Shown here piece after piece: positions 14,228 through 54,725 of a stretch of DNA of 64,000 nucleotides (its first letter is position 1; each line of letters opens with the position of its first letter). A program made the translations under genes and the position numbers. Source of the DNA: Pyrinomonadaceae bacterium (GTDB lineage: Bacteria; Acidobacteriota; Blastocatellia; Pyrinomonadales; Pyrinomonadaceae); NCBI GenBank assembly GCA_037969295.1, contig JBBKXD010000087.1:918-64917 (forward strand), read 5' to 3'. The notes beneath the pieces are model-generated. The model did no database searches and was not told where the DNA came from. It saw only the letters and a program-made list of their open reading frames with translations.

Positions 14228-14243
14228 TGCAATTGCTATACCC
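14228..14243 (-). promoter_or_regulatory. weak sigma54-type -24/-12 candidate upstream of the USP-cgs operon
   Basis: The minus strand reads GGGTAT-AGCAA-TTGCA (GG-N10-GC spacing is correct and the -12 TTGCA is exact, but the -24 is imperfect). Confidence 0.3.
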
Positions 14244-14439
14244 GCGCGTCAGACGTGAACAAGATTCCATCAAAGTGTCAATTCAGTCTGATTTATGAAT
14301 TGCCGTAGGCTCAAGAAACAGCAGAGTGGGTGGTTTTGCCTAATAGAGTGTGGAAAAACACTTAATTCTTGTTCGTCAGACCCCCGGTTGGCAATGAATT
14401 CTTCGGTTCCCTTTTGCGGGGACTCTTTCTGGAACTGCT

Positions 14440-14472
14440 TGCTAACAAACACCCAATATCTGCTAACAAACA
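14440..14472 (+). repeat. two exact 12-nt direct repeats (tgctaacaaaca) spaced 21 bp apart in the divergent control region
   Basis: Copies at 14440-14451 and 14461-14472. The related caaacaccc occurs at 14447-14455 and 14507-14515. Confidence 0.7.
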
Positions 14473-14809
14473 GGCGGGTTAAGCACCCATTAAGGATGGA
14501 CCTTACCAAACACCCGTAACTACATGAAAACACAAGCCTTTCTATTTTGAACGCGAAAGGAATGATTATTGCCAATATATTTTCCTTTTAAGTCGAAGGA
14601 TAGGTATTTTAGCGCCTCGAGCCATGGCAGAATGCGTTAAGGCAATTTTCCTAAAGTACTTGCTGCAGCCGGCTTGACTTGTTACCTGCTCATAGGTTGG
14701 ACAATAACAAGTTGACTGTCTGGAACTCTCGAATTGTTATTTGCTGGAGTTTCTATTTTTCATTTCGGTAAAGGTAACCAGGCTCGAAATTTTGCCTAGT
14801 AGATAAAGA

Positions 14810-16219
14810 GTGGCGAAAAACAAAATCTTGGTCGTAGATGACGAGCAGAATAATCGTTGGTCGCTAGGCGAAGCTTTGCGTGGTTGGGGTTATGAAGTTG
14901 CGGAAGCATCTACGGTTGCCGAGGCCCTTTCCGCCTACGACCGGAATCAGCCCTCAGCTGTTCTTCTTGATATCAATTTGCCCGACGGGTCCGGTCTTGA
15001 CGTTCTAGGCGAAATAAGGCGAAAGTCTCCTAATACGATTGTGATCATGATAACGGGCCGCGTTTTGGCTGATGAAGCGATCACGGCCTTACGTAACGGA
15101 GCTTATGATTTTATAGGCAAGCCGGTTGATTTAGACGAACTGGAAATAACCATTCGCAACGGTCTGGAAACCCGATCTTTGAGGCAAGAAATCACTCAGG
15201 TTAGAAGCGAGCGGGCGAGTCGTTTCAATTTCGAACAAATTATCGGCGAATCCGACGCCATCCGGGAAATTCTGGATCTTGCCCGCAAAGTGGCGGAGAG
15301 CGACGTCGCATCCGTGTTGCTCCAAGGCGAATCAGGGACCGGTAAAGACCTTCTGGCAAAAGCAATTCATTACGGATCAGGTCGCGCCGCCGCCCCGTTT
15401 GTGGCAATCAACTGTGCCGCGATCCCGGCTCAATTGATTGAATCCGAACTTTTCGGTTACGAAAAGGGCGCGTTCACAGACGCGAAACAGCGCAAGCAAG
15501 GACTTTTTGAGCAAGCCGAAGGCGGCACGCTCTTTCTCGATGAAATCGGCGAAGTTGAAATCGCATTGCAGGCAAAACTGCTTCGCGTTTTAGAAGAAGG
15601 CGTATTTCGGCGCGTCGGGGGCTTGAAGGATATTCCGCTTGATGTGCGCGTGATAGCGGCGTCGAACCGTGATTTGCGAACCGAAAGCGAAGCGGGGCGG
15701 TTCCGGCTTGATTTGTATTACCGCTTGTCGGTGATTCAGCTTGACCTTCCGCCACTTAGGGAAAGAGGCAACGATGTTTTGCTCCTCGCCGAGCATTTCG
15801 TTAAATACTTGAAGGAGCGTTTGCGACGAATGATTGACGGGTTCACCCCGGAAGTGGCGGAGATTTTGCTCCGATATGAATGGCGCGGCAACGTCCGCGA
15901 GCTTCGCAATGTCATCGAACGAGCAATGATATTGGAGGACGGTGGCAAAATAACCACTAAATACTTGCCGCCCAATTTGACGGAAACAGAGATCCAGGCA
16001 TTTGGGCCAGGCTCCTCTGAACTGAAGATCAAAGATGGTGTTTTGCATTTGCCATTGCAGGACTTATCGCTCAAAAGCCTCGAGGATTCGCTAGTGCAAT
16101 GGGCATTGACGAAAAGCGGCGGCAACAAATCGCAAGCAGCCCGATCTTTGGGAATAACCCGTGATCAAATGGTTTACCGCTTGAAGGCGATAGGCGACAC
16201 ACAGAAAAGTAGTGAGTAA
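14810..16219 (+). CDS. sigma54-dependent response regulator (REC - AAA+ - Fis-type HTH; NtrC family bEBP)
   Basis: Receiver domain (VVDDE...[11 protein letters not shown]), Walker A GESGTGKD, Walker B LFLDEIGE, a GAFTGA-loop variant [15 protein letters not shown], and C-terminal [25 protein letters not shown]. Confidence 0.9.
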
Positions 16220-18149
16220 GAGTTCCGAAACAACAACGCTCAATGATTATGGACTGCCAGACGACGAATGGCGGCGCATCCTTAAAGAATTAGCGGATTT
16301 AAAGTTTGCACTCGACGAATCAGCGATCGTAGCTATAACCGACCAGACCGGCAAAATCACTTACGTTAACGATAAATTCTGCGAAATCTCAAAATACAGC
16401 CAACAAGAGCTTATCGGGCAGGACCACCGAATCATCAGTTCCGCTTATCACCCGAAGGAATTCATACGGGAGCTTTGGACGACGATTGCAAATGGCAAAA
16501 CGTGGCACGGAGAGTTAAAGAATCGCGCCAAAGACGGAACGTACTATTGGGTGGACACGACGATTGTCCCGTTCCTTGACGGGCGCAAGAAGCCTTACCA
16601 ATACGTGGCCATCCGCTACGACATCAGCGATCGCAAATTGGGCGAAGAAAAAATCCGGGAGCAAGCCGCGCTTCTCGACATTGCCCAGGACGCTACTTTT
16701 GTCCGCCGGGATTCCGGCGAAATTACTTACTGGAACAAAAGTGCGGAAATCCTCTACGGCTGGTTAGCGGGCGACGTTATTGGCAAAAACATCGACGAGC
16801 AGTTGTTTGGCGAATCCGTGAAACTCGACGAAATTTTGGGAGTCGCACTAGAAAAAAAAGCGTGGCGTGGCGAAATACGGCAATTCACGAAAGATGGCAA
16901 GATCCTTCTCGTCGAAAGTAAGTGGACGCCGGGCCACTTTGATCTTGGTAAGGCCCATTCATTTCTAGTTACTAACACCGATATTACCGAAAAGAAACAG
17001 CTTGAGGCACAATTCTTAAGAGCTCAACGGATGGAATCAATCGGGGCTTTGGCGGCCGGCATCGCCCACGATCTCAACAACGTCCTTTCGCCGATGCTCA
17101 TGTCTGTACAGTTCCTAAAGCGCAAACATTCAGATGAAGAAAGCCAAAAATGGCTGGGCGCCTTACGCGAGAATGCCGAGCGTGGTGCGAGTCTGATCAA
17201 ACAACTGCTTACATTTGCGAGAGGCACGGAGAGTGACAAACTGCCGCTTCAACCGCACCATCTTATCAAAGAAGTAATCAGGATATTGCGCGAGACATTA
17301 CCAAAATCAATCAACATCAGATTTTTTATTCCCGACAGTTTGTGGACGATCGCAGCCGATCCGACGCAAATGCATCAGGTTTTGATGAACCTTTCGGTCA
17401 ACGCGAGAGACGCGATGCGGCAAGGCGGAACGCTCACGCTAGAAGCTGAAAATGTTGCTCTTGACGCAAACTACGTGTCAACGCATCATGATGCTCGAAC
17501 CGGTCAATTCGTTGTGATAACCATTGGAGACACGGGCGAAGGCATAGTACCGGAAAATCTGGACAAGATCTTTGATCCTTTTTTTACTACCAAAGGAATC
17601 GGAAAAGGTACTGGTTTAGGCCTTTCAACGGTCGCTGGAATCATTAAAGGTCATGCCGGATTTATCGACGTTTACAGCGAGCCGGGGAAAGGGTCGCGCT
17701 TTGATGTTTATTTCCCCGCAATCGCAGCAATAGAAACGCAAGACACCGAAATTGTTAATGCTGAAATTCCAAAAGGCAGCGGCGAATATATTCTGGTAGT
17801 GGATGACGAAGAATTGATCAGGGATGTTTCACGAATCACGCTCGAACAATTTAACTACAGCGTACTGACCGCCGCGAACGGTGCGGAAGCGCTCGACATT
17901 TATCACACCCGGCAAAATGAGATCGCCGTCGTCATTACTGATAGCCTGATGCCCGTTATGGACGGAGAAGCACTTATCAGCGCTCTTTCGAAAATTAATC
18001 CTCAGATAAAAATCGTACACACGAGCGGTTTGCTGGAGATAAACAAACCGGATCTACCTCGTCCCTATGCGGTCGAGACATATCTCTCAAAACCTTTCAG
18101 CGCCGAAAAACTGCTTGAAACGGTTGCGAGGGTTCTTGGTAAGATCTGA
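16212..18149 (+). CDS. PAS-domain hybrid sensor histidine kinase with C-terminal receiver
   Basis: Two PAS-like segments, H-box [12 protein letters not shown], HATPase N/G boxes ([16 protein letters not shown]), then a REC domain (ILVVDDEE...[12 protein letters not shown]). It overlaps the bEBP stop. Confidence 0.9.
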
Positions 18150-18201: not shown

Positions 18202-18217
18202 TGGCACGAGCTTTGCA
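18202..18217 (+). promoter_or_regulatory. sigma54 (-24/-12) promoter, exact consensus
   Basis: TGGCAC-GAGCT-TTGCA, 40 nt upstream of the MerR-family gene start at 18257. Confidence 0.75.
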
Positions 18218-18256
18218 GTAAGCAGACTAGGGAGAGATGACAAATGTATGACCTAA

Positions 18257-18694
18257 ATGAAACATAATATTAATCCGGTAAATTCGATGACGGCGCAAAT
18301 CCTTGCAGATTACAGCGGCGTTACCGTAGAAATCGTCAGGTATTACACCCGGCGCGGTTTGCTCAAGCCGGTGCGTAACCGCCGAAATAACTACAATTCA
18401 TATCCGGAGTCGAATGCGGCCCGCCTTAGGTTCATTCGCCGGGCGAAAAACCTGGGTTACAAGCTTAGCGAAATTGCCGAGATTTTCGAGCAAAGCGATC
18501 GCGGTGATTCCCCGTGCCCACTAGCGCGTGAGATTATCGAGCGTCGTATCGTCGACAACCGAAAAAAAGTTGATGAAATGTTGCAATTACAATCGAGGAT
18601 CGAAGCGGCCTCGGCACACTGGGCAACGCTTCCGGACAAAGTCCCAGACGGAAACACGGTTTGTCATCTGATCGAATCAACGGGCGAAATTTGA
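18257..18694 (+). CDS. MerR-family transcriptional regulator
   Basis: N-terminal wHTH (ILADYSGVTVEIVRYYTRRGLL) and a coiled-coil dimerisation helix preceded by the SPCP motif. The ligand is unknown. Confidence 0.85.
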   Translation: MKHNINPVNSMTAQILADYSGVTVEIVRYYTRRGLLKPVRNRRNNYNSYPESNAARLRFIRRAKNLGYKLSEIAEIFEQSDRGDSPCPLAREIIERRIVDNRKKVDEMLQLQSRIEAASAHWATLPDKVPDGNTVCHLIESTGEI

Positions 18695-18793
18695 ATTGTC
18701 GGCCGGGTTCACCGCTTGGCGGCAAATTGGGCAAACGAGTCTGTCCTGATCTGTTGAAACCAAATTACCTGTTGATTATTGTCCTGAGAATTT

Positions 18794-19609
18794 ATGTACC
18801 CAGAACTTTTTCGTATTGGCAATTTTCCGATAGGCACCTACGGTGTCCTGCTAGTTATTGGTTTGCTTCTTGGTCTATTTGTCTCGTCACGGCGAGCGGC
18901 CCGCGATGGAATCTTAGGCGGGCGAATCTACGATCTAGGCGTATGGACGATTGTCGGCGGGCTGGTTGGCGCGAAAATCCTAATGCTATTGACCGAAGAT
19001 AATGTGCAGATTTTTTCGCTTGATTTTTTGCGTTCCGGCGGTGTCTATTATGGCGGTCTATTGGGCGGATTCGCCGCACTCGTTTTATTGGTCCGCTGGT
19101 ATCAACTTCCCTTCTTGAAGGTCGCCGACGCGTTCGCTCCGGGCGTTGCTCTTGGGCAGGCAATCGGACGATTAGGTTGCTTTGCCGCCGGCGATGATTG
19201 GGGAAAACCGACAAACCTTCCGTGGGGCGTACATTTTACGGAGCTAGCACACCAAAATCAAGGCGTTCCAATTTACAACCCAGACGGTTCCAATTTGTAT
19301 TTGCATCCGACACAGTTATACGAATCGTTTGCGATGTTTGTCGTTTTCGGCTTGCTGATTTACCTCCACCGGCGCAAAGCATTCGACGGACAGATTCTCG
19401 CGACCTATACGGTCATATACGCGATCGTGCGCTTTTCGATTGAATTTTTTCGAGACGACCCGCGTGGCGACCTTTTCGGACTGACGACTTTGACTGGTTT
19501 TTCTACTTCTCAGTTGATCAGCTCACTGGTAGCTGTTAGCGCAGTAGTATTTGTGATTATACGTTTTGGAAAAAGAAAGTTTTTAGCGACGCGAGACAAT
19601 ACCGTTTGA
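18794..19609 (+). CDS. lgt: prolipoprotein diacylglyceryl transferase
   Basis: Multi-TM protein with GRLGCFAAGDDWGKPT and HPTQLYES motifs typical of Lgt. Confidence 0.85.
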   Translation: MYPELFRIGNFPIGTYGVLLVIGLLLGLFVSSRRAARDGILGGRIYDLGVWTIVGGLVGAKILMLLTEDNVQIFSLDFLRSGGVYYGGLLGGFAALVLLVRWYQLPFLKVADAFAPGVALGQAIGRLGCFAAGDDWGKPTNLPWGVHFTELAHQNQGVPIYNPDGSNLYLHPTQLYESFAMFVVFGLLIYLHRRKAFDGQILATYTVIYAIVRFSIEFFRDDPRGDLFGLTTLTGFSTSQLISSLVAVSAVVFVIIRFGKRKFLATRDNTV

Positions 19610-19710
19610 TACCTCTTCGGGTTGCGTCTTTTCCCCGACTCGCTCGGTCATTTCACCTACAATACTCACTCCTACTTCTCAAGAATCGCCTAGACAAGCC
19701 GGTCTAAGGG

Positions 19711-19726
19711 CGGCACGGCGGTTGCA
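19711..19726 (+). promoter_or_regulatory. sigma54-type promoter, near consensus
   Basis: CGGCAC-GGCGG-TTGCA (10 of 11 fixed positions), ~110 nt upstream of gnd. Confidence 0.55.
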
Positions 19727-19834: not shown

Positions 19835-20737
19835 ATGCAATGCGGAATGATTGGATTGGGACAAATGGGCGGCAATATGGCGCGCCGGCTGCTACGCGGC
19901 GGGCACGATGTTGTTGTCAGCAACCGAAGCCACGAACCTGTTGAAGAACTTAAAGCGGAAGGTGCGGTGGGAGCCTCCTCTGTTAAAGATCTGGTTGAAA
20001 AACTAGAAACCCCGCGCGCAGTTTGGGTCTCGCTGCCATCGGGCGAGGTGACGGAGAACACCCTAAATCAGCTCAAGTCGCTCCTGACGCACGGTGACGT
20101 GATCGTGGACTCAGGAAACTCCTTTTACAAGGACACGCTCCGGCGAGGTGTGCAGCTCAAAGAAAGTGGACTCGATCTGCTGGACCAGGGAACGAGCAGC
20201 GGCATTTGGGGGCTAGACAACGGCTTCTGTCTGATGATCGGCGGAGAGCGAGCAAGTTTCGAGTATTTGGAACCTGCCTTCAAAACTCTTGCACCTCTGG
20301 AGGGCTATCTTTACACCGGTTCGAGCGGCTCAGGGCACTTCGTGAAAATGGTTCACAACGGTATTGAATACGGGATGCTTGAGGCATACGGCGAAGGCTT
20401 TGAGATTCTCAAGTCGTCCAATTTCGAGTCGCTCGATCTGCCGGCGATCGCGCATTTGTGGAATCAGGGCAGCGTCGTCAGATCGTGGCTGCTCGAATTG
20501 GCGGAAAGCGCGTTCCGTAAAGATCCGGCTCTTGCGTCAATTCGGGGCTATGTGGAGGATTCCGGTGAAGGCCGATGGACGGTACTCGAATCACTTGAGA
20601 GAAATGTTCCCGCTCCAGTTCTGGCTCTCTCGCTTATGATGCGGTTTCGTTCGCGGCAGGATGAGAGTTTCAGCGCCAAGGTTATCGCCGCCTTACGCAA
20701 TGAATTCGGGGGCCACGCGGTGAGGCTGGCCGAATAA
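19835..20737 (+). CDS. gnd: 6-phosphogluconate dehydrogenase (decarboxylating), short ~300-aa form
   Basis: MIGLGQMGGNMARRL Rossmann motif, GSGHFVKMVHNGIEYG and a RSWLLE... C-domain. Confidence 0.85.
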   Translation: MQCGMIGLGQMGGNMARRLLRGGHDVVVSNRSHEPVEELKAEGAVGASSVKDLVEKLETPRAVWVSLPSGEVTENTLNQLKSLLTHGDVIVDSGNSFYKDTLRRGVQLKESGLDLLDQGTSSGIWGLDNGFCLMIGGERASFEYLEPAFKTLAPLEGYLYTGSSGSGHFVKMVHNGIEYGMLEAYGEGFEILKSSNFESLDLPAIAHLWNQGSVVRSWLLELAESAFRKDPALASIRGYVEDSGEGRWTVLESLERNVPAPVLALSLMMRFRSRQDESFSAKVIAALRNEFGGHAVRLAE

Positions 20738-20817
20738 AATACGCGATTCACGAGTCGAGAAGGCTCAAGGTCGGAAAACAATTTTCGTTTAGACAGTTAG
20801 TAAATAAGGAGAAAAAA

Positions 20818-21201
20818 ATGAGTTGTTGTAGTGATGTAATGGAACCAATCGAAGCGGCTTCGTGCTGCACGCCGAAGAATTCGGCGGCTGACGCCGCCCA
20901 GGCAATGAAACATTCAGGTTGCGGGTGCTCACCTGTAGTCGAGGATAAGGAAAGTCTCAATCTTGTCGGTGTCGTCACCGAGCGCGATATTACCCACAGT
21001 GTGGCGGCAGGAGACCGCCTTGCTTCCGAGGTGCGCGTTGAAGAGATCATGCAACCCGTGTCTTCGTGTTGCGGGGCGGATGAGCCAGTTGAAGAGGCGC
21101 GCCGAAAGCTTAATGAGCATCGTGCTACCAGCTTACCAGTGGTGGACAAGGCGGGCAGTTGTTGCGGCACCGTCAGTGCCCATGGCTTGGACATGAAGTA
21201 G
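20818..21201 (+). CDS. CBS-pair domain protein, unusually Cys-rich
   Basis: LVGVVTERDI and SLPVVDKAG CBS strands. There are 10 Cys in 127 aa arranged as doublets (SCC, SCC, CGC, SCC, SCC). Confidence 0.8.
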   Translation: MSCCSDVMEPIEAASCCTPKNSAADAAQAMKHSGCGCSPVVEDKESLNLVGVVTERDITHSVAAGDRLASEVRVEEIMQPVSSCCGADEPVEEARRKLNEHRATSLPVVDKAGSCCGTVSAHGLDMK

Positions 21202-21400
21202 AGCCCCGGGTGCCAACATTTGAGAATGCGAGGGGCCATTTTGCGAAACTGTCCCCGCCACCGAGCAATAGGCAGTGGCGGTGATGTTATGTCTTTTTCG
21301 ACGCGTAAATTGGTCCTTTTGAGCACGGTTATTATGTGCGCAAAATCCCGCCAACCCTAAGTTTGGGACGGCGGGCAATTACAAAAGGAGAACAATAACA

Positions 21401-22195
21401 ATGTTACAGATTATTAGTGATTTAGACGGCCGCAAGATTCACGCTGCCGATGGCGAGATCGGGAGCGTAGAGCAGTTTTTTTTCGATGACGAGACCTGGA
21501 CAGTCAGATATCTCGTCGTTGATACCGGCAACTGGCTTCCAGGAAAAGAAGTATTGATATCGCCGATCGCGGTTGGTGAGATAGACTCCGTAGCACGCGA
21601 GTTTATTGTGTCACTGACGAAGGAGCAGGTCGAAAATAGCCCGGGTATAGAAACAGATAAGTCGGTTTCACGACAGCACGAAGCTGAGTACAACAGTTAC
21701 TATGGCTACACGGACTATTGGGGTGGCGGCGGTCTATGGGGCTTGGGGGCATACCCGTCTGGCCTTTACACGATGGGCTATCCTGATCGACTCGGAGTGG
21801 CGACGGGCTACGCGGCTACACCCGCGCTGGGGCCGGAGAAAGCAAAACCGGAGGAAGAAGGTGATCCACATTTGCGCTCCACAAAGGCAGTGACCGGGTC
21901 CAACATAGAGGCTAAGGATGGCGGGATCGGCCATGTCGAAGACTTTATCATTGATGACAAAACATGGGCGATCCGGTTCCTGGTTGTTGACACCGTTAAC
22001 TGGTGGCCGGGCAAAAAGGTGATCGTGGCCCCGCAGTGGATCGAAAGCGTCAGTTGGGATCAATCAAAAGTTTTTGTGAACCTGACGAAGGAAAGTATTA
22101 AGAACGCGCCGGAGTATTTCCCTAGTGCGATAGTCAATCAAGCCTACGAGGAGAGCCTATACAATCACTACGGCATGTCAAAATACGGCTACTGA
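21401..22195 (+). CDS. PRC-barrel domain protein (two PRC barrels joined by a Gly/Tyr-rich linker)
   Basis: Repeated G.IG.VE.F..DD.TW.VRYLVVDTGNWLPGK / IGHVEDFIIDDKTWAIRFLVVDTVNWWPGKK modules. Confidence 0.75.
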   Translation: MLQIISDLDGRKIHAADGEIGSVEQFFFDDETWTVRYLVVDTGNWLPGKEVLISPIAVGEIDSVAREFIVSLTKEQVENSPGIETDKSVSRQHEAEYNSYYGYTDYWGGGGLWGLGAYPSGLYTMGYPDRLGVATGYAATPALGPEKAKPEEEGDPHLRSTKAVTGSNIEAKDGGIGHVEDFIIDDKTWAIRFLVVDTVNWWPGKKVIVAPQWIESVSWDQSKVFVNLTKESIKNAPEYFPSAIVNQAYEESLYNHYGMSKYGY

Positions 22196-22273
22196 GGGAA
22201 TGCGAATACCGATTTCTTTATATAGGATCCTGCGGACATGCGTCGGGGTTGGTGAACGGGAAATAGGAGGCGG

Positions 22274-22720
22274 ATGATGCTTATCGGACTTGCAGCAGAT
22301 CATGCGGGATTTGCCTTGAAGGAACTACTGGCCAAAGCACTGCGTGAGTCCGGACACGAAGTCGTGGATTTCGGCTCGTCCGATCTAGCTCCGGAGGACG
22401 ATTATCCCGATTACGTCGTGCCCCTGGCCAGGAATGTTGCCGATGGTACGGTTGAACGCGGGTTGGCGATCTGCGGAAGTGGGGTTGGGGCATCTATCGC
22501 CGCCAACAAGGTGAAAGGAGTGCGGGCAGGACTGGTTCACGAAATCTTTTCCGCTCACCAGGGTGTCGAAGACGATGACATGAACGTGATCTGTTTTGGC
22601 GGCAGCGTACTAGGTTTTGCGCTCGCCATGGAATTAGCTGAAGCTTTCCTGGCTGCCCGTTTCAAAAACGAAGAGCGCCATCAGCGACGGCTGAGAAAGG
22701 TGGCTGCCCTGGAAGGTTGA
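22274..22720 (+). CDS. rpiB: ribose-5-phosphate isomerase B (RpiB/LacAB family)
   Basis: IGLAADHAGFALKE...GLAICGSGVGASIAANKVKGVRA, ~148 aa. Confidence 0.85.
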   Translation: MMLIGLAADHAGFALKELLAKALRESGHEVVDFGSSDLAPEDDYPDYVVPLARNVADGTVERGLAICGSGVGASIAANKVKGVRAGLVHEIFSAHQGVEDDDMNVICFGGSVLGFALAMELAEAFLAARFKNEERHQRRLRKVAALEG

Positions 22721-22814
22721 GTTATCAAGATGGATCGCGAATTTAAAGTTGCAGGTAACGGGATCTCCGCAAAAACTGACTCCGGTACGACAAAGACCGT
22801 CAATAAGGGCTATT

Positions 22815-23738
22815 ATGACCGACCAGATCCGAAGAATTCTCGAATGTTACCGGGGTGAAAATACCGGTGTATTGACAAATCTATCCCGGATACTCAATCA
22901 TGGCCGACTCGCAGGCACTGGCCGTATGATTATACTGCCAGTCGACCAAGGGTTCGAGCATGGCCCCGCACGAAGTTTCGCTCCAAATCCGCCCTCATAC
23001 GATCCAGCTTACCATTTCCAACTTGCGATAGACGCGGGCCTGAACGCGCATGCGGCATTGCTCGGATCTCTCGAAGCGGTCGCTGCGGAGTTCGCGGGCG
23101 AAATTCCACTGATTCTCAAACTTAACAGTCACGATCTTTTGCATCCGGAGGAGGACCCGCTAGGTGCTCAAACGGCGTCCGTCGCCGATGCTCTCCGGCT
23201 TGGTTGCGTGGCAATCGGTTACACAATTTACCCGGGCACAGCGGAGAGGCGAATCCAATATGAGCAATTACGAGAACTGTCCGAGGAAGCAAAGGCGGCC
23301 GGACTTGTCGTGGTCGTCTGGGCTTATCCTCGCGGTGGAGGATTGAGCAAAGAGGGTGAAACGGCTCTTGATGTGACCGCCTACGCTGCCCAAATTGCGG
23401 CCCAACTTGGCGCACATATTATCAAAGTAAAATTACCCAGCGCGCACCTTGAACTTAAGGAAGCCAGAAAGGTTTACGAAGAACAGCATATACCGCGCGA
23501 AACGCTGACAGAACGGGTGCGGCATGTGGTGCAAAGCGCGTTCAACGGACGGCGAATCGTGATCTTCTCCGGTGGGGCCAGGATAGATGATGCGGCACTC
23601 CTGGATGAGGCCCGCTCGATCCACGCCGGCGGTGGTTTCGGATCGATCATAGGCCGCAATTCGTTCCAACGGGATCGACCGGCGGCTCTGAACATACTGG
23701 ATCAGATAATCCGCATTTACAAAGGGGATACGCCGTGA
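22815..23738 (+). CDS. class I fructose-bisphosphate aldolase, DhnA/FbaB (archaeal-type) family
   Basis: LPVDQGFEHGP, GYTIYPG and IIKVKLP (Schiff-base Lys region). The start is taken at MTDQIRRILE rather than the longer ORF. Confidence 0.78.
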   Translation: MTDQIRRILECYRGENTGVLTNLSRILNHGRLAGTGRMIILPVDQGFEHGPARSFAPNPPSYDPAYHFQLAIDAGLNAHAALLGSLEAVAAEFAGEIPLILKLNSHDLLHPEEDPLGAQTASVADALRLGCVAIGYTIYPGTAERRIQYEQLRELSEEAKAAGLVVVVWAYPRGGGLSKEGETALDVTAYAAQIAAQLGAHIIKVKLPSAHLELKEARKVYEEQHIPRETLTERVRHVVQSAFNGRRIVIFSGGARIDDAALLDEARSIHAGGGFGSIIGRNSFQRDRPAALNILDQIIRIYKGDTP

Positions 23739-23763
23739 GATTGGATGAAGACAAGCTGCCGTA

Positions 23764-24060
23764 ATGGAAACAGAAGCAACCGTAATCTTGCTTTTCATAG
23801 TGGCCACCACTCTGGTGATCGCGGTTCGGCGGCTGGCCGTTCCGTACACGGTGGCACCGCTCTTCGCCGGACTCGCATTGCAGCTGTTTAATGGTTTTGA
23901 AGCGCCTCATCTGACCAAAACCCTGCTTTTCAGCCTCTTTCTGCCGGGTTTGCCATCAAGGCCGTATTTCACATTGAGTTTGAACAATTCAGGCGAAATC
24001 GCCTCGCCATTTCTTGGCTTGCAATACCTGGCATAATGGCACCAATCGGGAGGCAGTATT
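23764..24060 (+). pseudogene. N-terminal remnant of a cation:proton antiporter gene (frameshifted and truncated)
   Basis: The ORF gives ILLFIVATTLVIAVRRLAVPYTVAPLFAGLAL...LFLPGL. The expected continuation FHIEFEQFRRNRLAISWLAIPG is in another frame, and the gene then ends at pgm. Confidence 0.45.
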
Positions 24061-24100
24061 CCTGCCTAAACGTGAAATATGAGAACGTGAGGAGGGAAAC

Positions 24101-25834
24101 ATGATAATCAGCCCTTTTGCGGGAAAGCCCCCAGTACCCGCCATGCTGGTCAATGTACCTAAATTGATCACCGCTTATTATACCGAAGTTCCCGATCCCC
24201 ACATGCCTGAGCAACGGGTGTCGTTCGGCACGTCCGGGCACCGGGGTTCCGCCTTCGACAGGGCATTTAACGAGAGGCACATCCTGGCTATCAGTCAGGC
24301 TATTTGCTTGTATCGAAAGCAGCAAAAGATCGACGGCCCGTTGTTTCTCGGCATGGATACCCATGCCCTCTCCGTTCCCGCTCTCGCGAGCGCTCTGGAA
24401 GTTCTTGCAGCCAACGGAGTGGAAGTTATGCTGGCGGAGGGTGATGAGTATACGCCGACCCCTGCGATCTCCCATGCGATCCTGACATATAACAAGGACC
24501 GGAATACAGGCCTCGCGGATGGCATTGTAATAACGCCTTCTCATAATCCGCCCCATGACGGAGGCTTCAAATACAACCCTCCTCATGGCGGTCCGGCGGA
24601 CGGCGGCGTTACGAATTGGATCGAAGCGAAGGCCAACGAATTTTTGGAGAATGATCTTCGCGGATTGAAAAGGATTTCTTTCGCGAAAGCAGTTCGTTCC
24701 TCGACGACGCATCGGCATGACTATATAGGTGCCTACACGAACGATCTCAATGCAGTATTGGACATGGAGGCCATTCGCGGAGCCGATATTAGTCTTGGTG
24801 TGGATCCGCTTGGGGGCGCCGGAGTCCACTATTGGAGCCGGATTGCGGAGCGTTATAAGTTGAATCTCACCGTTGTGAGTGAGATCGTCGATCCGACTTT
24901 CCGCTTCATGACGGTTGATTGGGACGGCCAGATCCGCATGGACCCGTCATCGTCCTACACAATGACCAAGTTGATCGGGATGAAGGATCGTTTTGATATT
25001 GCTTTTGCGTGTGACACAGACCATGACCGGCACGGGATCGTTACCAAAAGCATGGGGCTGCTTCCGCCTAATCACTATCTTTCCGCCGCCGTCTATTACC
25101 TCTTTCGGCACCGCCCAAAATGGCACGCAGAAGCGCTGGTTGGCAAGACGGTGGTGAGCAGCCGGATGATAGATCATGTTGCAGAGAAACTTGGCCGGAA
25201 GCTATACGAGGTTCCGGTCGGTTTCAAATGGTTCGTTGACGGTTTGCTCGACGGCTCTCTTGCCTTTTGTGGCGAGGAAAGCGCGGGCGCCTCCATTCTC
25301 CGCCTAGATGGCAGCGTTTGGACGACGGATAAAGACGGCATTGTTATGGGTCTGCTCGCGGCGGAGATGACTTCAAAGAGCGGACGCGATCCGGGAGAAG
25401 TCTATGTAGAACTGACAAGTGATCTAGGCGATCCGGTTTACGAACGCATTGACGCACCCGCGACCCCATCGCAAAAAGCGATTCTGCAACGACTCTCGCC
25501 GGATCAAGTCAAAAGTTCAGAATTGGCCGGAGAAAGAATCATAGAGAGACGAACAACCGCACCTGGCAACGGAGCGGCGTTAGGAGGACTGAAAGTTACT
25601 ACTGAGAACGGCTGGTTTGCGGCGCGTCCGTCCGGAACGGAGGACGTTTACAAGATTTATGCCGAGAGTTTCCTTAATACTGCTCACCTGCGGCGGATCC
25701 AAGCCGAGGCTCAGACACTCGTCGACGACATTCTCACCGGGCAACGACCAAGAACAAAAGGAGGCCCGAAAGAGATTGCACCAACGGCTGACCCCAAGCC
25801 TACCAAGCTCTCGACCGTTAGAGGGGGTAACTAG
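24101..25834 (+). CDS. pgm: phosphoglucomutase, alpha-D-glucose-phosphate specific
   Basis: TPSHNPPHDGGFKYN active-site loop, GVDPLGGAG and GEESAGAS motifs, 577 aa. Confidence 0.9.
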   Translation: MIISPFAGKPPVPAMLVNVPKLITAYYTEVPDPHMPEQRVSFGTSGHRGSAFDRAFNERHILAISQAICLYRKQQKIDGPLFLGMDTHALSVPALASALEVLAANGVEVMLAEGDEYTPTPAISHAILTYNKDRNTGLADGIVITPSHNPPHDGGFKYNPPHGGPADGGVTNWIEAKANEFLENDLRGLKRISFAKAVRSSTTHRHDYIGAYTNDLNAVLDMEAIRGADISLGVDPLGGAGVHYWSRIAERYKLNLTVVSEIVDPTFRFMTVDWDGQIRMDPSSSYTMTKLIGMKDRFDIAFACDTDHDRHGIVTKSMGLLPPNHYLSAAVYYLFRHRPKWHAEALVGKTVVSSRMIDHVAEKLGRKLYEVPVGFKWFVDGLLDGSLAFCGEESAGASILRLDGSVWTTDKDGIVMGLLAAEMTSKSGRDPGEVYVELTSDLGDPVYERIDAPATPSQKAILQRLSPDQVKSSELAGERIIERRTTAPGNGAALGGLKVTTENGWFAARPSGTEDVYKIYAESFLNTAHLRRIQAEAQTLVDDILTGQRPRTKGGPKEIAPTADPKPTKLSTVRGGN

Positions 25835-25836
25835 AG

Positions 25837-26523: not shown

Positions 26524-26587
26524 CACTTCAAACCGGTCGTTGCGGAATAATGCCAAGCATAACTTAATTGTCAAACAAGGGAAATTT

Positions 26588-27488: not shown

Positions 27489-27504
27489 TGGCACGTTCAT
27501 TGCA
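27489..27504 (+). promoter_or_regulatory. sigma54 (-24/-12) promoter, exact consensus
   Basis: TGGCAC-GTTCA-TTGCA, and the 18-nt core cttggcacgttcattgca is identical to the copy at 43642-43659. It lies inside the 5' extension of ORF 27422-28285, so the real start is probably at 27623. Confidence 0.75.
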
Positions 27505-30901: not shown

Positions 30902-30939
30902 TGATTTCCTGAGAACCCGGGTCCAGTGAGGATTTACTT

Positions 30940-31518: not shown

Positions 31519-31549
31519 GCAACCCTACTGTGAGAGCCACTAAAGGAGC

Positions 31550-32212
31550 TTGACCATGAACGAACATATTGAACATACCGGAGCTTGGGCCATTGCCCTG
31601 ATCGTGATCGTGGTGGTCTCGTGGCTCTTGTACCGGTATCTCGCGCCTAAGACGTGGCGGGAGTGGGCGAGTGCAGGCGTCATCCAGGCCTTTATTATTG
31701 CCCTGTATGCCGAGATGTACGGCTTTCCGCTCACTATCTACTTACTCGTCCGTTTCTTTGGCCTCGATCAGACTTACCTGAATGCTAACCTCTGGTCCAC
31801 GCTCCTGGGTTACGGGGAGGCCGGCATGATGATCTCGATGATTATCGGCTACACGCTGCTGTTTGTAGGCATTGGAATATTTATGGAGGGATGGCGCGAG
31901 CTTCACCGCGCCCGACAGGAGAATCGGCTCGTCACAGATCGCCTTTACGGGTTGGTGCGGCATCCCCAATACACCGGACTTTTCATCGCGATCTTCGGCG
32001 AAGGTATTGTTCATTGGCCTACCATTTTTTCCGTAGCTCTTTTCCCCGTTATTGTTCTCGCCTACTTCCTTCTGGCGCGAAATGAGGAACGAAAAGTTGA
32101 GGAACAATTCGGTGATGAATACCGCGCTTACCGAAAGCGTGTACCCATGTTCTTCCCTCGCTGGGGTCAATGGCGCAATCTGGCGACGACGCGAGGTGAG
32201 AATCCTGCTTAG
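31550..32212 (+). CDS. isoprenylcysteine carboxyl methyltransferase (ICMT/PEMT-like) family membrane protein
   Basis: LVTDRLYGLVRHPQYTG...EERKVEEQFGDEYRAYRKRVP C-terminal signature, with multiple TM helices. Confidence 0.75.
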   Translation: MTMNEHIEHTGAWAIALIVIVVVSWLLYRYLAPKTWREWASAGVIQAFIIALYAEMYGFPLTIYLLVRFFGLDQTYLNANLWSTLLGYGEAGMMISMIIGYTLLFVGIGIFMEGWRELHRARQENRLVTDRLYGLVRHPQYTGLFIAIFGEGIVHWPTIFSVALFPVIVLAYFLLARNEERKVEEQFGDEYRAYRKRVPMFFPRWGQWRNLATTRGENPA

Positions 32213-32312
32213 GGTCTTACAGATTGTGGAAAAGCGAAGAAAGGCCATACAAGGGAGCGGCGGATCAAAACGTCACGGAATGTAGGAAAGACGAAGGGAA
32301 AGGAGACCGATT

Positions 32313-32642
32313 ATGGAAGGCATATTGTGGTTATTGGTGATCGCTGGATTCTTCTATTTCATGATGAGGTTCGGCTGTGGCTCTCACATGGTACATGGTC
32401 ACGGAGGCCATGGAAAGCACGGGGGTCAGGATGATTCAGTCGAAGTGGTGAAGGGTCACGGTACCCACGGGGGGCACGCCGTGCAAGGAAGCGTCGGCCC
32501 CGATCCAACAGATCCGGTGTGCGGAATGGAAGTAAATCCGGCATCCGGTTATGGACGCATGTACGAGGGCAAGGAATATCGCTTCTGTTCACGAACGTGC
32601 TTGGATCAGTTTGACGCTGAGCCGGCGCGCTACACCAGTTAA
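32313..32642 (+). CDS. YHS/TRASH-domain protein with an N-terminal TM helix and a His/Gly-rich tract
   Basis: DPVCGMEVNPASGY...YRFCSRTCLDQFDAEPARY (YHS motif), preceded by HMVHGHGGHGKHGG...GHGTHGGH. Confidence 0.8.
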   Translation: MEGILWLLVIAGFFYFMMRFGCGSHMVHGHGGHGKHGGQDDSVEVVKGHGTHGGHAVQGSVGPDPTDPVCGMEVNPASGYGRMYEGKEYRFCSRTCLDQFDAEPARYTS

Positions 32643-32655
32643 AGAGGAGATGACA

Positions 32656-32919
32656 ATGAAACAAGGACTTTCATTAGTAGCAGTGGGTTTCGCGACCAGT
32701 TTGTTCCTGGCCATAACCTTTGTCTTGTGTGTTGGGTTTGACCTTTTGTTTCCGGCCCACGCGATGTTCCAGGCGTGGCAAAAGTTACTGCCTGGCTTCC
32801 AGTGGCTGAGTTGGGGCAGTTTCTTTCTAGGACTAATTGAGAGCTACGCCTACGGTTGGTATATCGCACTCATTTGGGTGCCGCTTTACAATGTTTTCGC
32901 TCTGAGGAAGCAGCGATAG
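32656..32919 (+). CDS. small 2-TM membrane protein, paralogue 1 of 4 (DUF5676-like from memory)
   Basis: Shares the ...LP.F.WL...GF.LGLIES..YG.Y...WVP.YN pattern with 35638-35907, 43745-44005 and 46955-47227. Confidence 0.6.
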   Translation: MKQGLSLVAVGFATSLFLAITFVLCVGFDLLFPAHAMFQAWQKLLPGFQWLSWGSFFLGLIESYAYGWYIALIWVPLYNVFALRKQR

Positions 32920-33051
32920 ACCGATTTGTTAAGCGTCGGTCTCAACCAACAGACGACACCGCCGTCTTGTCGAAGGTGGTCGAAATGCGAGAAACCGGGC
33001 AGATTGAGACCAAGCTCGACGAAGAAGTGAAAACTAATAAAAGAGAAAATA

Positions 33052-33424
33052 ATGAGAATACTACTAGCGACAGATGGGTCGGAGCAAAGCCAAGCAGCGG
33101 TCAATGAGATCGCGGCCAGGCCTTTTCCGCCTGATACGAGCATTCGGATTGTTTCGGCTTATGAAAAGGACCTCACTACTCACTCGTGTGGAACCGATGG
33201 GAGTGTCGGAGGAGTTTTATGCCAGAGCTGACCATAATGCCTTAAAGACGGCTGAGGATGCGTCAGAAAAAACCAATTTTGACTGTGACAACATGCGGAC
33301 CGGCAGCATGAGGCAAGTAGATAGAACGGCAAAAAAGGCGAATGTTGTCGCCGCAATCACGAGGTTGGAATCAAACGGAAACATCGTCGCCGCGGCGCTT
33401 TTCCAATTTTACATGACTAATTAA
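33052..33424 (+). pseudogene. decayed universal stress protein gene
   Basis: MRILLATDGSEQSQAAVNEIAARPFPPDTSIRIVSAYEK is a good USP N-terminus. The frame then breaks near 33165, and the C-terminal ATP-binding G-x2-G-x9-G(S/T) region cannot be recovered in any frame. Confidence 0.4.
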
Positions 33425-33440
33425 CTTAAAGGAGATAACT

Positions 33441-34010
33441 ATGCAAGCACATGCAGGACACATGATGGAGAAGATGGAAGAGCCGGAAACGGCAGAGAAA
33501 AGTGCGGTCGTGGCAATCTACGACACCCACTGAGAGGCCGAGGAAGCGGTCCGTGAGCTCGAGAAATCGGGGTTTGATATGCAGAAACTGTCGATCGTCG
33601 GCAAGGACTACCAGACGGAAGAAGAGGTAGTTGGCTATTACAACACGGGCGATCGTGTGAAAAAGTGGGGTAAGACCGGGGCCTTCTGGGGCGGTCTATG
33701 GGGACTGTTGTTCGGATCGGCGTTCTTCCTCGTGCCCGGTATCGTTCCGTTGCTCGCAGCCGGACCGATAGTCGGCTGGATCGTTGGTGCACTGGAAGGC
33801 GCGGTAGTGGTCGGGGGTCTGAGCGCTCTTGGCGCCGGGCTTTACGGCCTCGGGATTCCAAAAGACAGCATCATCGAATACGAAACGGAGATCAAAGCCG
33901 GCAAATACGTGATCATTACACATGGCTCTCCGGACGAAGTGAGCAAGACCGAAGGCACGCTTTCGGCGACCAAGCATCAAGGGATGAAAAAGCATTCCTG
34001 CTGTGCGTAA
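33441..34010 (+). pseudogene. general-stress/DUF1269-like membrane protein interrupted by an in-frame TGA at 33531-33533
   Basis: A strong RBS (ggag) precedes the ATG at 33441. It reads ...AVVAIYDTH*EAEEAVRELEKSGFDMQKLSIVGKDYQTEEEVVGYYNTGDRVKKWGK...Gly-zipper TM...IPKDSIIEYETEIKAGKYVIITHG. The track ORF 33579-34010 is the same frame downstream of the stop. Confidence 0.6.
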
Positions 34011-41405: not shown

Positions 41406-41742
41406 CCAAGCCGTTTTGGAGTTTTGAATCTTTACAGAACGCGAGGAAATTATTTACTATTTGGCGGGTGCTAAATGAGGATCAAATAAATCTCTTTCCT
41501 GGAAAAGACAAATAATCATTCTCATTTCTCTCGTTCATTATCTGGGTCGAGTAGGAGCAGCAGACCCGCAATTGCCGCAATTACACCGACGACGATCCAA
41601 ATCCAAAACCGTGATATTCTCGCGTTAGATCGGAAAACATCAGGAGGGTCATATGTACGATCAAAAAAAACGATACTGTCAAACCTTAAACAATTCCGAC
41701 CAAACGTTTTTTATTCGCCGCCTTTAACCATTTCAAAGTCCT

Positions 41743-43276
41743 TCGATATCAGTGATTCCGGCGGTGTTTTCGGCATATACGAGCGCGTACTCAAGCTCGC
41801 TTTCAGTTTCGGCGTGTATCGTATAAATAGGCTGTCCTGTTTCAACTTTTTGACCAACCGGGGCATGTAATTCCAACCCGGCGGACTGCGCCCGCGGAGC
41901 ACCCGCCCAGCTTTGCTACTTGAGCGAGTTTTCGGTTGTTAATATTCGTTATGATTCCGTCGGCTTGGGCAATGATTGTTTGTGTGAAATCAGCGCGTGT
42001 CGGCTCGCGGAAACCGCCTTGCCTCTCGCAAATGTTCAGGAATTTTTGCCATGCTCTTCCCTCCATCAAGATTTGGGTGGCTATCTGGCGGCCTTGTCCC
42101 TCGGGGATAGTGCGCGACATTTCTATGGTCTTTCCTGCAAGTACCAGTGCCCGTTCGCGTAAGTCTTCGGGTGCCCCCCGCTTCATTCCTGAGAACAGAT
42201 AAAACGTCCCGTGCTTCGAGCGAGGGACCGATACCGCGACCAACCGGCTGAGACCCGTCTGAAATTATCGTGTGAATCTCAAGACCAACGGAACTTCCGA
42301 CCAATGCCAAAAGTTTTCCGAGCGGGCTTGCCGCTTCAAAAGTGCGGTGTCTTGCGGTCGCATCGACCGGAATGTCGATAACCACATGAGTTGAACCGGC
42401 TAACACTTTCTTCGACAGCACCGACGCAACCATTTGACCAACACAATCAAGATCGAGAGCACGTTCGACACGGATCAAATAATCGTCCGCCGGGCTCAAG
42501 TTGAATTCCCTATCCCAAACGATGCAGCCGCCTTCCCTATCTACGACTCTCCGCATCTCCGCCAAGGTAAGATTTACCGGAGCAAGCGTTCCCATGGTGT
42601 CAGCGGTCCCTGCGGGAGAAGTAATCGCTCGCGAAGAAATCTTCGGCATCATAAGACCGTAAGCGGTTACAATCGGCACGACGATCAGACTCGTGCGATT
42701 GCCCGGAAGTCCGCCAAAGGTGTGCTTATCCATGATCGGTGAGCTTCTCCATGAGATCCGCCCACCGTTGTTAATAACTGCCTTGGTTAGATTTATGATT
42801 TCGTCCTGACCCAGGCGATCGCCAGCGCAAGCCGCTAGAAACGCGGCGACATCTAGATCCGAATAGCGCCCCGCGGCTATGTCGCGGATAATTTGTTCGT
42901 AGTCTTCGGGTTCAAGATAGTTTCCGTAAATTTTAGTACGAACTTTGTGAAGCGAAGCGAGCGGTGGCGGATGTGCGAGGTCGACTTTATCGCCTTCTTC
43001 AGCGCCGAGCAATCGCCAGGCGGCCTCCGACAAACCAGCTTCACCCGGCGCAAGCAATCCGTTGTTAACGACATTCAAAGTAGCGACAACGGAGCGTAAG
43101 TTGTTGCGGACCAAAATACGGGACTGAGATTCAAATCCTTCCGAACGACAGACAAAACAATCAGCGCGCATGTAAATTACCGCTTCCTGGTAGGTATCGA
43201 TACCTAGGCGCCTCAGGCGTAACGAATGCCGGCCTCCGCAGCCGCGTAGATCTTCAACTTCAATATTTAGATCCAT
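41743..43276 (-). pseudogene. thymidine-phosphorylase-family protein (~510 aa long form) broken by two 1-nt indels
   Basis: Frame 1 (43276 to ~42190) carries DKHTFGGLPGN and TSPAGTADT. The text continues in frame 2 (APEDLRERALVLAGK...NNRKLAQVAKLGG) and frame 3 (APRAQSAGLELHAPVGQKVETGQPIYTIHAE...*). Both shifts sit in G runs (fwd cccccc near 42175; gcggg near 41905). Confidence 0.75.
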
Positions 43277-43486
43277 AGCTTCAAATCAATAAATTCAGAC
43301 TGTCAGCTCGCACAAAGTCCGATGCGATTTCTCAACCAGTTAATCATTGCCCCGGTCACAGATACCGCATGATCCTTATATTTTTGATGCCATTGATACA
43401 TTCATTGGACTCAAAGTTTTAGGTAGTTGCCTTATTAAGATTGACTCAAGTGCCGTTCGGGTCGGCGGTCTATCATAACTCTGAAC

Positions 43487-43502
43487 TGCAAGCCTCGTGC
43501 CA
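43487..43502 (-). promoter_or_regulatory. sigma54 (-24/-12) promoter, exact consensus, minus strand
   Basis: The minus strand reads TGGCAC-GAGGC-TTGCA. It points at the thymidine-phosphorylase-family gene (start 43276). Confidence 0.7.
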
Positions 43503-43643
43503 TTTCCGAATTTCCCGTTTCTCACGCGATCCAAACTTCGTATTCCAATAAATCGTGTCATATGCCACAACGAACAAGTGATAATCCTCATCCGGCGAGC
43601 AGGATCTCTGATTTCCGGCTAATAAATATCGGCATTTTAGACT

Positions 43644-43659
43644 TGGCACGTTCATTGCA
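43644..43659 (+). promoter_or_regulatory. sigma54 (-24/-12) promoter, exact consensus
   Basis: TGGCAC-GTTCA-TTGCA, 86 nt upstream of the GTG start at 43745 (RBS aggagg). It is divergent from the promoter at 43487-43502. Confidence 0.75.
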
Positions 43660-54723: not shown

Positions 54724-54725
54724 GA

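Follow-up and report, generated by a model that had tools for sequence, protein, structure and literature searches.

A tRNA-Arg-flanked metal-homeostasis island in a Pyrinomonadaceae bacterium with conserved sigma-54 promoter motifs and a candidate two-component activator

The window analysed here, a stretch of 64,000 nucleotides from a Pyrinomonadaceae bacterium (contig JBBKXD010000087.1), contains an island of metal-homeostasis and stress genes in which sequences resembling sigma-54 (-24/-12) promoters precede several operons, and which itself encodes an activator of the sigma-54 type and a hybrid histidine kinase (Table 1). An exact 43-bp repeat at 4175-4217 and 54483-54525 flanks positions 4218-54482 (~50.3 kb), and it is because these flanking copies are derived from tRNA-Arg that the island is considered to be real. 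An earlier reading of the window, made from its sequence and referred to here as the original prediction, had described a horizontally acquired island, and the repeat upholds the island. The nearest genomes are metagenome-assembled ones of Pyrinomonadaceae and Blastocatellia, and a protein identical to one of the window is annotated as belonging to a Pyrinomonadaceae bacterium.

Table 1. Features of the window, with positions counted from its first nucleotide
Feature	Position	Strand	Remarks
Left copy of the 43-bp direct repeat, partial tRNA-Arg 3' end	4175-4217	+	Left island boundary
Tandem-Usp gene	13215-14144	-	Pfam/NCBIfam
Weak site GGGTATAGCAATTGCA facing the tandem-Usp gene	14228-14243	-	Score 18; unsupported as promoter
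Candidate enhancer (upstream activating sequence, UAS), two imperfect 16-bp TGT-N10-ACA palindromes TGCTTGCTAACAAACA, TATCTGCTAACAAACA	14436-14472	+	
Weak -24/-12 element AGGAATGATTATTGCC before the activator-kinase operon (putative autoregulation)	14558-14573	+	Positional conservation
Putative MerR-type sigma-70 promoter, TTGACT-N20-GACAAT, dyad ACTTGT-N9-ATAGGT	14674-14705	+	
Sigma-54 activator (bacterial enhancer-binding protein, bEBP): REC, AAA+, HTH_8	14810-16219	+	Pfam
Soluble hybrid histidine kinase: PAS1 (FAD-type), PAS2, HisKA, HATPase, REC	16212-18149	+	Pfam
Putative sigma-54 promoter TGGCACGAGCTTTGCA	18202-18217	+	Exact motif; 40 nt to merR (18257); serves merR-lgt
merR1 and lgt (prolipoprotein diacylglyceryl transferase)	18257-19609	+	Pfam
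Upstream box B GTCATTTCACCTA	19647-19659	+	Position weight matrix (PWM) score 17.1; next-best window match 12.6
Putative sigma-54 promoter CGGCACGGCGGTTGCA	19711-19726	+	One mismatch; 109 nt to gnd (19835)
Unit downstream of 19711	19835-27061	+	Pfam, NCBIfam
CBS gene	20818-21201	+	Confirmed by exact protein look-up
Two conserved blocks, palindrome-like AAGTTATATGACAC and GTGAAAATCCTCAACC	27399-27437	+	Upstream of 27489
Putative sigma-54 promoter TGGCACGTTCATTGCA	27489-27504	+	Exact motif; 119 nt to DUF6629 (ATG 27623)
Unit downstream of 27489	27623-34010	+	Pfam, NCBIfam
Thymidine/AMP-phosphorylase-like gene, split over three reading frames	41742-43276	-	tblastn
Putative sigma-54 promoter TGGCACGAGGCTTGCA	43487-43502	-	Exact motif; 211 nt to the phosphorylase-like gene (43276)
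Shared blocks, near-palindrome GTGTCATATGCCAC and GTGATAATCCTCATCC	43555-43593	+	Between divergent promoters, upstream of 43644
Putative sigma-54 promoter TGGCACGTTCATTGCA	43644-43659	+	Exact motif; 86 nt to DUF5676 (GTG 43745)
Unit downstream of 43644	43745-51675	+	Pfam
Phosphoketolase gene (xfp)	48046-50421	+	
Acetate kinase gene (ackA)	50437-51675	+	
Xis/AlpA-type HTH_17 open reading frame (ORF) adjoining the tRNA	54002-54349	+	Pfam HTH_17, 28.6 bits
tRNA-Arg(CCT)	54481-54557	-	ARAGORN, Rfam; its 3' 43 nt are the right repeat copy

The activator and kinase genes overlap by 8 nt, and Pfam agrees with the original description of a REC-AAA+-HTH protein followed by a PAS-PAS hybrid kinase. In the activator the AAA+ domain (PF00158, 231.6 bits) contains the Walker A sequence GESGTGKD, the receiver domain (PF00072, 91.9 bits) displays residues D10/D11, D54, T82 and K104, and the HTH domain matches PF02954 with 38.2 bits. 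The loop that characterizes such proteins has the sequence GAFTDA, which is invariant in 120 orthologues and has been counted among the naturally occurring GAFTGA variants that are tolerated and compatible with activation (PMC4641369). Since no NCBIfam equivalog cutoff is reached (AtoC, 454 versus 714; NtrC, 411 versus 559; ZraR, 371 versus 760), the protein is assigned to none of these three regulators. The kinase lacks a transmembrane segment, and its first PAS domain resembles PAS-A of MmoS (3EWK; 135 bits over residues 39-146). The solved FAD-PAS structures 8DIK (76 bits) and 2GJ3 (56 bits) are matched as well, and the similarity extends to Aer and NifL, which, like MmoS, are sensors that contain flavin adenine dinucleotide (FAD). 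Five residues of the flavin pocket (T43, G47, H72, N104 and R135) are present in this domain and are kept in six orthologous kinases; they correspond to all five pocket residues named for MmoS and Aer (PMC9668731), which in MmoS are T103, G107, H132, N164 and R195.

The sequence TGGCAC-N5-TTGCA occurs four times in the whole window compared with an expectation of 0.03, derived from 100 dinucleotide shuffles of the window, none of which reached four matches. When one mismatch was allowed the count rose to five against 0.99 expected, the sole addition being 19711-19726 (+), whose CGGCAC form of the -24 element (CGGCACGGCGGTTGCA) is common among the promoters of relatives. Both the four exact sites and this 10/11 match had been reported in the original prediction, and both stand. 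In a weighted GG/GC scan of both strands the five sites rank highest (22-23); the next-best score, 20, is found exclusively within coding sequence and is reached nowhere in the flanks, where the original prediction had noticed no such elements. Each of the five lies between genes and points at the gene that follows, whose start codon is 40-211 nt beyond the motif (for DUF6629 the ATG at 27623 is the start used by a 100%-identical database protein), and all five agree with the consensus YTGGCACGR-N3-TTGCW, in which GG and GC are 10 nt apart. It should be emphasized, however, that the regulatory regions containing 27489 and 43644 are paralogous, aligning without gaps over ~130 nt, and so do not represent independent occurrences of the motif. 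Three or four independent exact sites are still far beyond chance. An Rfam scan of the window found only the tRNA, and therefore no riboswitch or leader accounts for the long 5' regions. Scans for the sigma-70 consensus and for intrinsic terminators, used to delimit transcription units, returned counts at chance level and were uninformative.

The activator belongs to a family that is widespread in soil metagenomes, with at least 120 orthologue clusters at 65% identity or above among the matches listed. Five loci from Pyrinomonadaceae metagenomes, in which the activator is 73-80% identical to that of the window (L081-L085), were fetched for comparison; three further loci contain an 83-92% identical DUF6629 (L169-L171), and L086-L088 carry the phosphorylase-like gene. 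In 5/5 of the loci L081-L085 the activator and kinase form an overlapping operon within copper/metal clusters, the neighbouring genes encoding multicopper oxidases, cupredoxins, Cus-like resistance-nodulation-division (RND) systems, DUF411, YHS/HMA P1B ATPases and MerR, in addition to Lgt, DUF5676, DUF302, Csp and DUF305. The motif NGGCAC-N5-TTGCN is present at 19 sites in 176 kb of related loci, compared with 1.7 in shuffles (maximum 6), and its density, 10.8 per 100 kb, is ~8-fold that of 73 unrelated activator loci (1.3 per 100 kb). A sigma-54 element precedes merR in L081 (14472), L082 (13464), L083 (11592), L084 (18791) and L171 (6385), and such elements are also located before DUF411, CBS-ATPase, multicopper oxidase and RND operons and before the activator gene. 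The L081 element at 20854, upstream of a multicopper oxidase gene, has a core (GGCACGTTCATTGCA) identical to that of window sites 27489 and 43644; L086 contains a divergent promoter pair identical to 43487-43502/43644, and related promoters in L087 (484) and L088 (7435) head operons that include the phosphorylase-like gene. In the more distant locus L001 the orthologous promoter is followed by genes for a PNPOx-like protein, a Zn-alcohol dehydrogenase and a P2-type ATPase. When 12 of these promoters are aligned, no columns other than those of GGCAC and TTGC are free of variation. This recurrence at orthologous positions in relatives supports the view that the motifs of the window behave like real sigma-54 promoters.

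Conservation does not extend to every promoter. Only 1/29 distant homologues of gnd (49-64% identity, from a single metagenome scan, with enough upstream DNA) has a site, and that site is weak, which shows that the gnd family is not generally sigma-54-dependent, although homologues at 49-64% identity say nothing about close relatives; the promoter before gnd thus appears to be lineage-specific. Similarly, a 27489-type site is absent directly upstream of DUF6629 in 3/3 of the loci L169-L171. As the gnd and DUF6629 promoters are not conserved, promoter placement appears to be fluid between genomes.

Two other candidate elements were rejected. The original prediction had listed six non-coding sites facing genes 40-200 nt away, a description that fits the five sites discussed above but not, as a promoter, the weak element at 14228 (-): its score of 18 is matched by ~25 sites within coding sequence, it has no conserved counterpart, and it is located 193 bp from the candidate enhancer described below, compared with ~100 bp in L082, L084 and L085. 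The element at 45172 (TGGAAAAGGCTTTGCA) is kept in L086 and L085 but belongs to the reading frame of a homologous 181-aa protein, and downstream of it in L085 there is no gene in the same orientation. A separate feature is a conserved block, GGGA..GATGA(A/C)A(A/G)A, which is found at 18230-18245 and correspondingly in L081-L084, after the sigma-54 promoter of merR and before the start codon of the gene; as the short ATG frames of the window at this position are closed by stops, the block is probably a leader element or a ribosome-binding region.

The 665 bp located 5' of the activator gene are non-coding, the mechanically called ORF within them being absent from the protein collection. In this region lie a candidate enhancer, a candidate autoregulatory promoter and a MerR-type promoter, none of which figured in the original prediction, nor did the FAD-type PAS domain of the kinase or the split of the phosphorylase-like gene. 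The enhancer consists of palindromes at 14436-14451 and 14457-14472, 21 bp apart and centred at about -141 and -120 with respect to the promoter at 14558. The pair is kept upstream of the activator gene in L081-L084, and with the same geometry (about -140/-120) it is located before the promoter of the RND operon in L085 and before that of merR in L171. A candidate enhancer pair of fixed geometry fronts three types of operon, those of the activator gene, the RND system and merR. The -24/-12 element at 14558 is kept in position as AGGAATG-N4-TTGCA in L081, L082 and L083, and its equivalent in L084 and L085 is the canonical TGGCAT/TGGCAC...TTGCG. In L001, which encodes a 67% identical activator, the TGT-N10-ACA pair is replaced at 13190-13260, upstream of TGGCACATGCGTTGCT, by a direct repeat, GGCTGCGC(A/G)AA, which may be a diverged enhancer. 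Elsewhere in the window, the 5' leader of DUF6629 contains, downstream of 27489, a one-mismatch enhancer half-site in reversed orientation, CTGCTAACGAACA at 27546-27558 (-).

Promoters controlled by the MerR family characteristically have a dyad within a spacer of 19-20 bp, and such a structure lies between the 14558 element and the activator gene. A 25-nt block of it is conserved in L081, L082, L083 and L085; in relatives it takes the form TTGACy-N20-TACAAT with the dyad ACyTGT-N9-AyArGT, and the dyad is supported by the compensatory change of ACCT/AGGT against ACTT/AAGT. The operator was found only before the activator operon and, in L081, L083 and L084, directly beside merR, upstream of the multicopper oxidase genes. 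MerR1 of the window is 65-75% identical to the sigma-54-linked MerR proteins of relatives, to which it is orthologous, and its residues Cys87 and Cys136 are conserved. The MerR proteins of the window score below the NCBIfam cutoffs for MerR (79 versus 151), ZntR (66 versus 168) and CueR (48 versus 147).

We propose, with a probability of roughly 0.6, that the ~50-kb tRNA-Arg island expresses its metal-homeostasis and stress operons from sigma-54 promoters and encodes the cognate two-component activator. The soluble hybrid kinase would sense the intracellular redox state and not metal directly, a view suggested by the similarity of PAS1 to the FAD-binding domains of Aer, NifL and MmoS. The kinase would phosphorylate the receiver domain of the enhancer-binding protein, which is predicted to assemble on the TGT-N10-ACA pair at about -140/-120 and to remodel the sigma-54 holoenzyme at its own promoter (14558). 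The activator would also act at 18202 (merR-lgt), 19711, 27489, 43502 and 43644, whether directly or through sites that escaped detection. The two-cysteine MerR, whose gene is located behind 18202, probably binds the sigma-70 promoter with the 20-bp spacer that precedes the activator-kinase operon, so that MerR and the sigma-54 activator would form a positive loop primed by metal.

Several observations weigh against this proposal. Searches with k-mers, palindromes, PWMs and half-site regular expressions did not reveal an enhancer motif common to the five window promoters. As no common enhancer is demonstrable, the control of all five by a single activator, like the protein-site assignments, the signal and the phosphotransfer, is something that we infer. 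The enhancer PWM found no other strong copy in the window, including near the other promoters, so that within the window the only enhancer that appears to be tied to this activator family is the one upstream of its own operon, and the motif was not found in L001-L006, in which the activator displays 64-67% identity. The promoter at 14558 is itself weak by score (18), and the 18202 promoter is preceded by only 52 bp of intergenic DNA. A PWM for a second upstream element of relatives, box A, gave 26 hits in the window against 22 in shuffles, the window blocks scoring 4.9, while box B, whose PWM was built from non-window sites only, is significant in the window solely at the 19711 promoter. The blocks upstream of 27489 and 43644 could belong to another regulator. 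No rpoN gene is located in the window, and Acidobacteria typically encode many enhancer-binding proteins. It should be stressed that the proposal as a whole is built on sequence and not on experiment, and this applies equally to the binding of FAD by PAS1, which is deduced from its matches. The original prediction of one sigma-54 circuit for all units therefore holds in part: the promoters are conserved and the activator-kinase pair is linked to metal clusters, but a common enhancer was not found.

It could be argued from these data that the promoters are real but are served by different enhancer-binding proteins encoded elsewhere, the island being a collection of units and not one regulon, and the local activator controlling only its own operon and, in other genomes, its RND and merR neighbours. 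The distribution of upstream elements is consistent with this possibility. Box B is common to 19711 and to the merR, DUF411, CBS and multicopper oxidase promoters of relatives. The 27489 and 43644 promoters share their own distinct blocks at identical distances; apart from these, k-mer sharing identified only the extended core ATGGCACGAG..TTGCAGT common to 18202 and 43502. The palindrome GTGTCATATGACAC gave 2 hits in the window against 1.2 expected, and the strict half-site regular expression, enriched in the promoters of relatives, is absent from those of the window. In addition, the conserved enhancer pair is present in the window only upstream of the activator gene, and the lack of conservation of the DUF6629 and gnd promoters elsewhere suggests that they were acquired independently. 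Against separate activators, however, promoter density is high specifically in islands that carry the pair (10.8 versus 1.3 per 100 kb), no second activator is encoded in the island, and in L171 the enhancer pair fronts the merR promoter, which indicates that in at least one genome promoters of the merR type may fall within the activator's repertoire. We regard this alternative as doubtful, but it keeps substantial weight because 19711 has box B, 27489 and 43644 have blocks of their own, and no common enhancer was identified.

A second alternative, which we consider unlikely, is that the island mediates a dormancy-like response to hypoxia or energy starvation in which the metal genes are passengers. 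The FAD-PAS kinase would then report a reduced respiratory chain, and the output would be Usp proteins together with a phosphoglucomutase/6-phosphogluconate dehydrogenase/RpiB/phosphoketolase/acetate kinase route that supplies ATP by substrate-level phosphorylation. The gene content is compatible with such a role: the island contains four Usp genes, an M50-CBS peptidase, a PNPOx-like protein, the phosphorylase-like gene, a phosphoribosyltransferase and xfp-ackA, a set that we take to resemble the mycobacterial DosR and Burkholderia lxa gene sets. The redox-sensing FAD type of PAS1, and the genes behind the orthologous promoter in L001, point in the same direction. In contrast, in all loci with a 73-80% identical activator the neighbours and the sigma-54-driven genes are copper/metal genes, a MerR-type metal sensor appears to be wired into the circuit, and the more distant gnd homologues lack sigma-54 promoters. 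The DosR/lxa-like interpretation is retained only as a rival because close orthologues of the pair are located in copper clusters. The third alternative, that the motifs are not promoters but repeated or duplicated sequence or chance matches, is highly improbable, for although the paralogy of 27489 and 43644 means that four exact sites overstate independence, and the 45172 element (TGGAAAAGGCTTTGCA) is conserved only because it is coding, there remain, compared with an expectation of 0.03, three or four exact sites that are independent of one another, all sites being intergenic and co-oriented, with equivalents that front orthologous genes where the flanking DNA has diverged and with invariance confined to the GG/GC core and TTGC, as -24/-12 elements should display.

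Returning to the metal-linked sigma-54 circuit, a more speculative version of it, which we think improbable as a whole, would integrate both signals in a response to copper-poisoned respiration, MerR reporting metal and the FAD-PAS kinase reporting the reduction of the electron-transport chain, with AND-type coupling between them. Cytoplasmic metal, perceived by the two-cysteine MerR, would switch on the kinase-activator operon, and the activator would in turn induce merR, creating the positive loop, together with the genes for metal export and handling. It would also induce a pathway that begins with phosphoglucomutase, continues via 6-phosphogluconate dehydrogenase and phosphoketolase and ends with acetate kinase, and that would provide substrate-level ATP while respiration is impaired. 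If correct, such coupling of MerR to a redox-gated sigma-54 system would be previously undescribed.

The units located behind the candidate promoters contain a range of functions. The genes downstream of 19711 encode an NAD-type 6-phosphogluconate dehydrogenase (gnd), a CBS protein, a PRC-barrel protein, RpiB, a class I fructose-bisphosphate aldolase, a 90-aa ORF, a phosphoglucomutase, a HAD hydrolase and a Usp protein. Downstream of 27489 are DUF6629, a CopB-like P1B ATPase, a PNPOx-like protein, ICMT, YHS, DUF5676 and small ORFs, and genes on the + strand continue past 34010 to merR2 (41405), encoding a cyclopropane-fatty-acid synthase, a major facilitator superfamily transporter, an epimerase and VKOR-SPW. 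DUF6629 (27623-28285) is unusually well conserved, with 75-93% identity over more than 100 metagenome clusters, and is found beside P1B ATPase, YHS, MerR and VKOR-SPW genes whose arrangement varies, which gives the impression of a mobile metal-related module. The P1B ATPase (28397-30901, +) has a His/Met-rich N-terminal region and an unusual signature for a CopB-like protein, with CPD replacing the usual CPC, CPH or SPC of transmembrane helix 4 and with MSGST in helix 6. The unit downstream of 43644 comprises genes for DUF5676, DUF302, the 181-aa protein, the M50-CBS peptidase, SHOCT, a second DUF5676, a lycopene-cyclase-domain protein, phosphoketolase and acetate kinase; strand and short gaps suggest that transcription from 43644 could extend through xfp-ackA. 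Homologues of the divergently oriented phosphorylase-like gene encode proteins of ~515 aa with a PYNP_C domain. In the window tblastn recovers the gene in three segments (43276-42161, 42177-41902 and 41906-41742), with shifts near 42170 and 41904, and the 89%-identical gene of L086 is also truncated (424 aa); the split reflects either a pseudogene or assembly indels.

The island also includes a 2879-aa cyclic-glucan-synthase-like gene. No integrase domain was detected at its ends, where only the Xis-like ORF and gene fragments are located, and its GC content (0.503) is not distinct from that of the flanks (0.507 and 0.53); the island is probably old or immobilised. At its right end, 51727-52131 (+) retains no more of an FAD/NAD oxidoreductase than its N-terminal Rossmann part, and 53404-53978 (-) contains pieces of a CusB/HlyD membrane-fusion protein, fragments that suggest decay or rearrangement. 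Past the tRNA, at 54560-54730, there is a run of short repeats, first GGATTT/GGGATCT and then AATCCCAA units, which are in inverted orientation around 54617-54685.

Acidobacteria, notably Blastocatellia/Pyrinomonadaceae, are abundant in soil and, to our knowledge, their gene regulation is almost unknown. No paper on a sigma-54 metal regulon in Acidobacteriota was found. The -24/-12 sites, the TGT-N10-ACA pair and the MerR-type operator provide testable handles for a first regulon map in this group.

The original prediction described the placing of these genes under one sigma-54 circuit as not a textbook arrangement, which is overstated in view of the precedents provided by CorSR/curA (PMC3707914), ZraSR and MmoS/MmoR. 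In Myxococcus xanthus the CorSR sigma-54 two-component system is associated with four putative sigma-54 promoters in a copper cluster, and its curA operon encodes a cupredoxin, a multicopper oxidase, a DUF305 protein and CopA (PMC3707914). Since sigma-54 two-component control of copper genes is already known from this organism, the surprise is moderate. CorSR/curA is the nearest characterized analogue of the system described here: in both, a REC-AAA+-HTH_8 regulator and a kinase are encoded inside a copper/metal cluster with several sigma-54 promoters, the clusters share cupredoxins, multicopper oxidases, DUF305 and a YHS P1B ATPase, and part of the cluster is, here by prediction, subject to a second regulator. 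The second regulator is, however, the extracytoplasmic function (ECF) sigma factor CorE in Myxococcus and a MerR here, in an apparently reciprocal loop with the activator. CorS, moreover, is a membrane kinase with a periplasmic sensor and a HAMP domain, whereas the window kinase is a soluble PAS-PAS hybrid with an FAD-type PAS. The island goes beyond the Myxococcus cluster in having genes for pentose-phosphate enzymes, phosphoketolase and Usp proteins and comes from another phylum, and orthology is unsupported as no NCBIfam equivalog was reached.

Promoters of the MerR/CueR/ZntR type resemble 14674-14705 in their 19-20 bp spacer, their dyad and their location near their own regulator gene and copper genes. 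Unlike these systems, merR here would be transcribed from a sigma-54 promoter and the operator fronts the operon of a sigma-54 activator, the candidate ligands being Cys87 and Cys136. Escherichia coli ZraSR (HydHG) is a metal-responsive system in which a sigma-54 REC-AAA+-HTH regulator acts from an inverted-repeat enhancer and is autoregulated. ZraS, however, senses periplasmic Zn/Pb, and the ZraSR regulon is small (zraP and zraSR) and is not an island; by the NCBIfam scores, moreover, ZraR is no orthologue of the window activator (ZraR, 371 versus 760; ZraS, 153 versus 479). The locus is thus best viewed as an undescribed variant of known sigma-54 copper-response circuits, of which no description was found in the literature.

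The sensor finds its closest parallel in a different system. MmoS participates in the copper switch that governs soluble methane monooxygenase, an enzyme expressed only with MmoR and RpoN (PMC7994243, PMC8534201). Similar to the window kinase, MmoS of Methylococcus capsulatus (MmoS/MmoQ) is a hybrid kinase with tandem PAS domains that begin with an FAD-binding PAS-A, and it links copper to sigma-54. The likeness found does not go beyond the PAS region. GAF and Hpt domains are further components of MmoS, and the activator MmoR is a separate protein that lacks a receiver domain. The output of MmoS/MmoR is the methane monooxygenase operon at low copper, in contrast with the metal-resistance genes of the island. 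The FAD-type PAS common to the two kinases nevertheless connects two copper-related sigma-54 systems, and a tractable second example could help to clarify the way in which copper status is read by a redox sensor that uses flavin.

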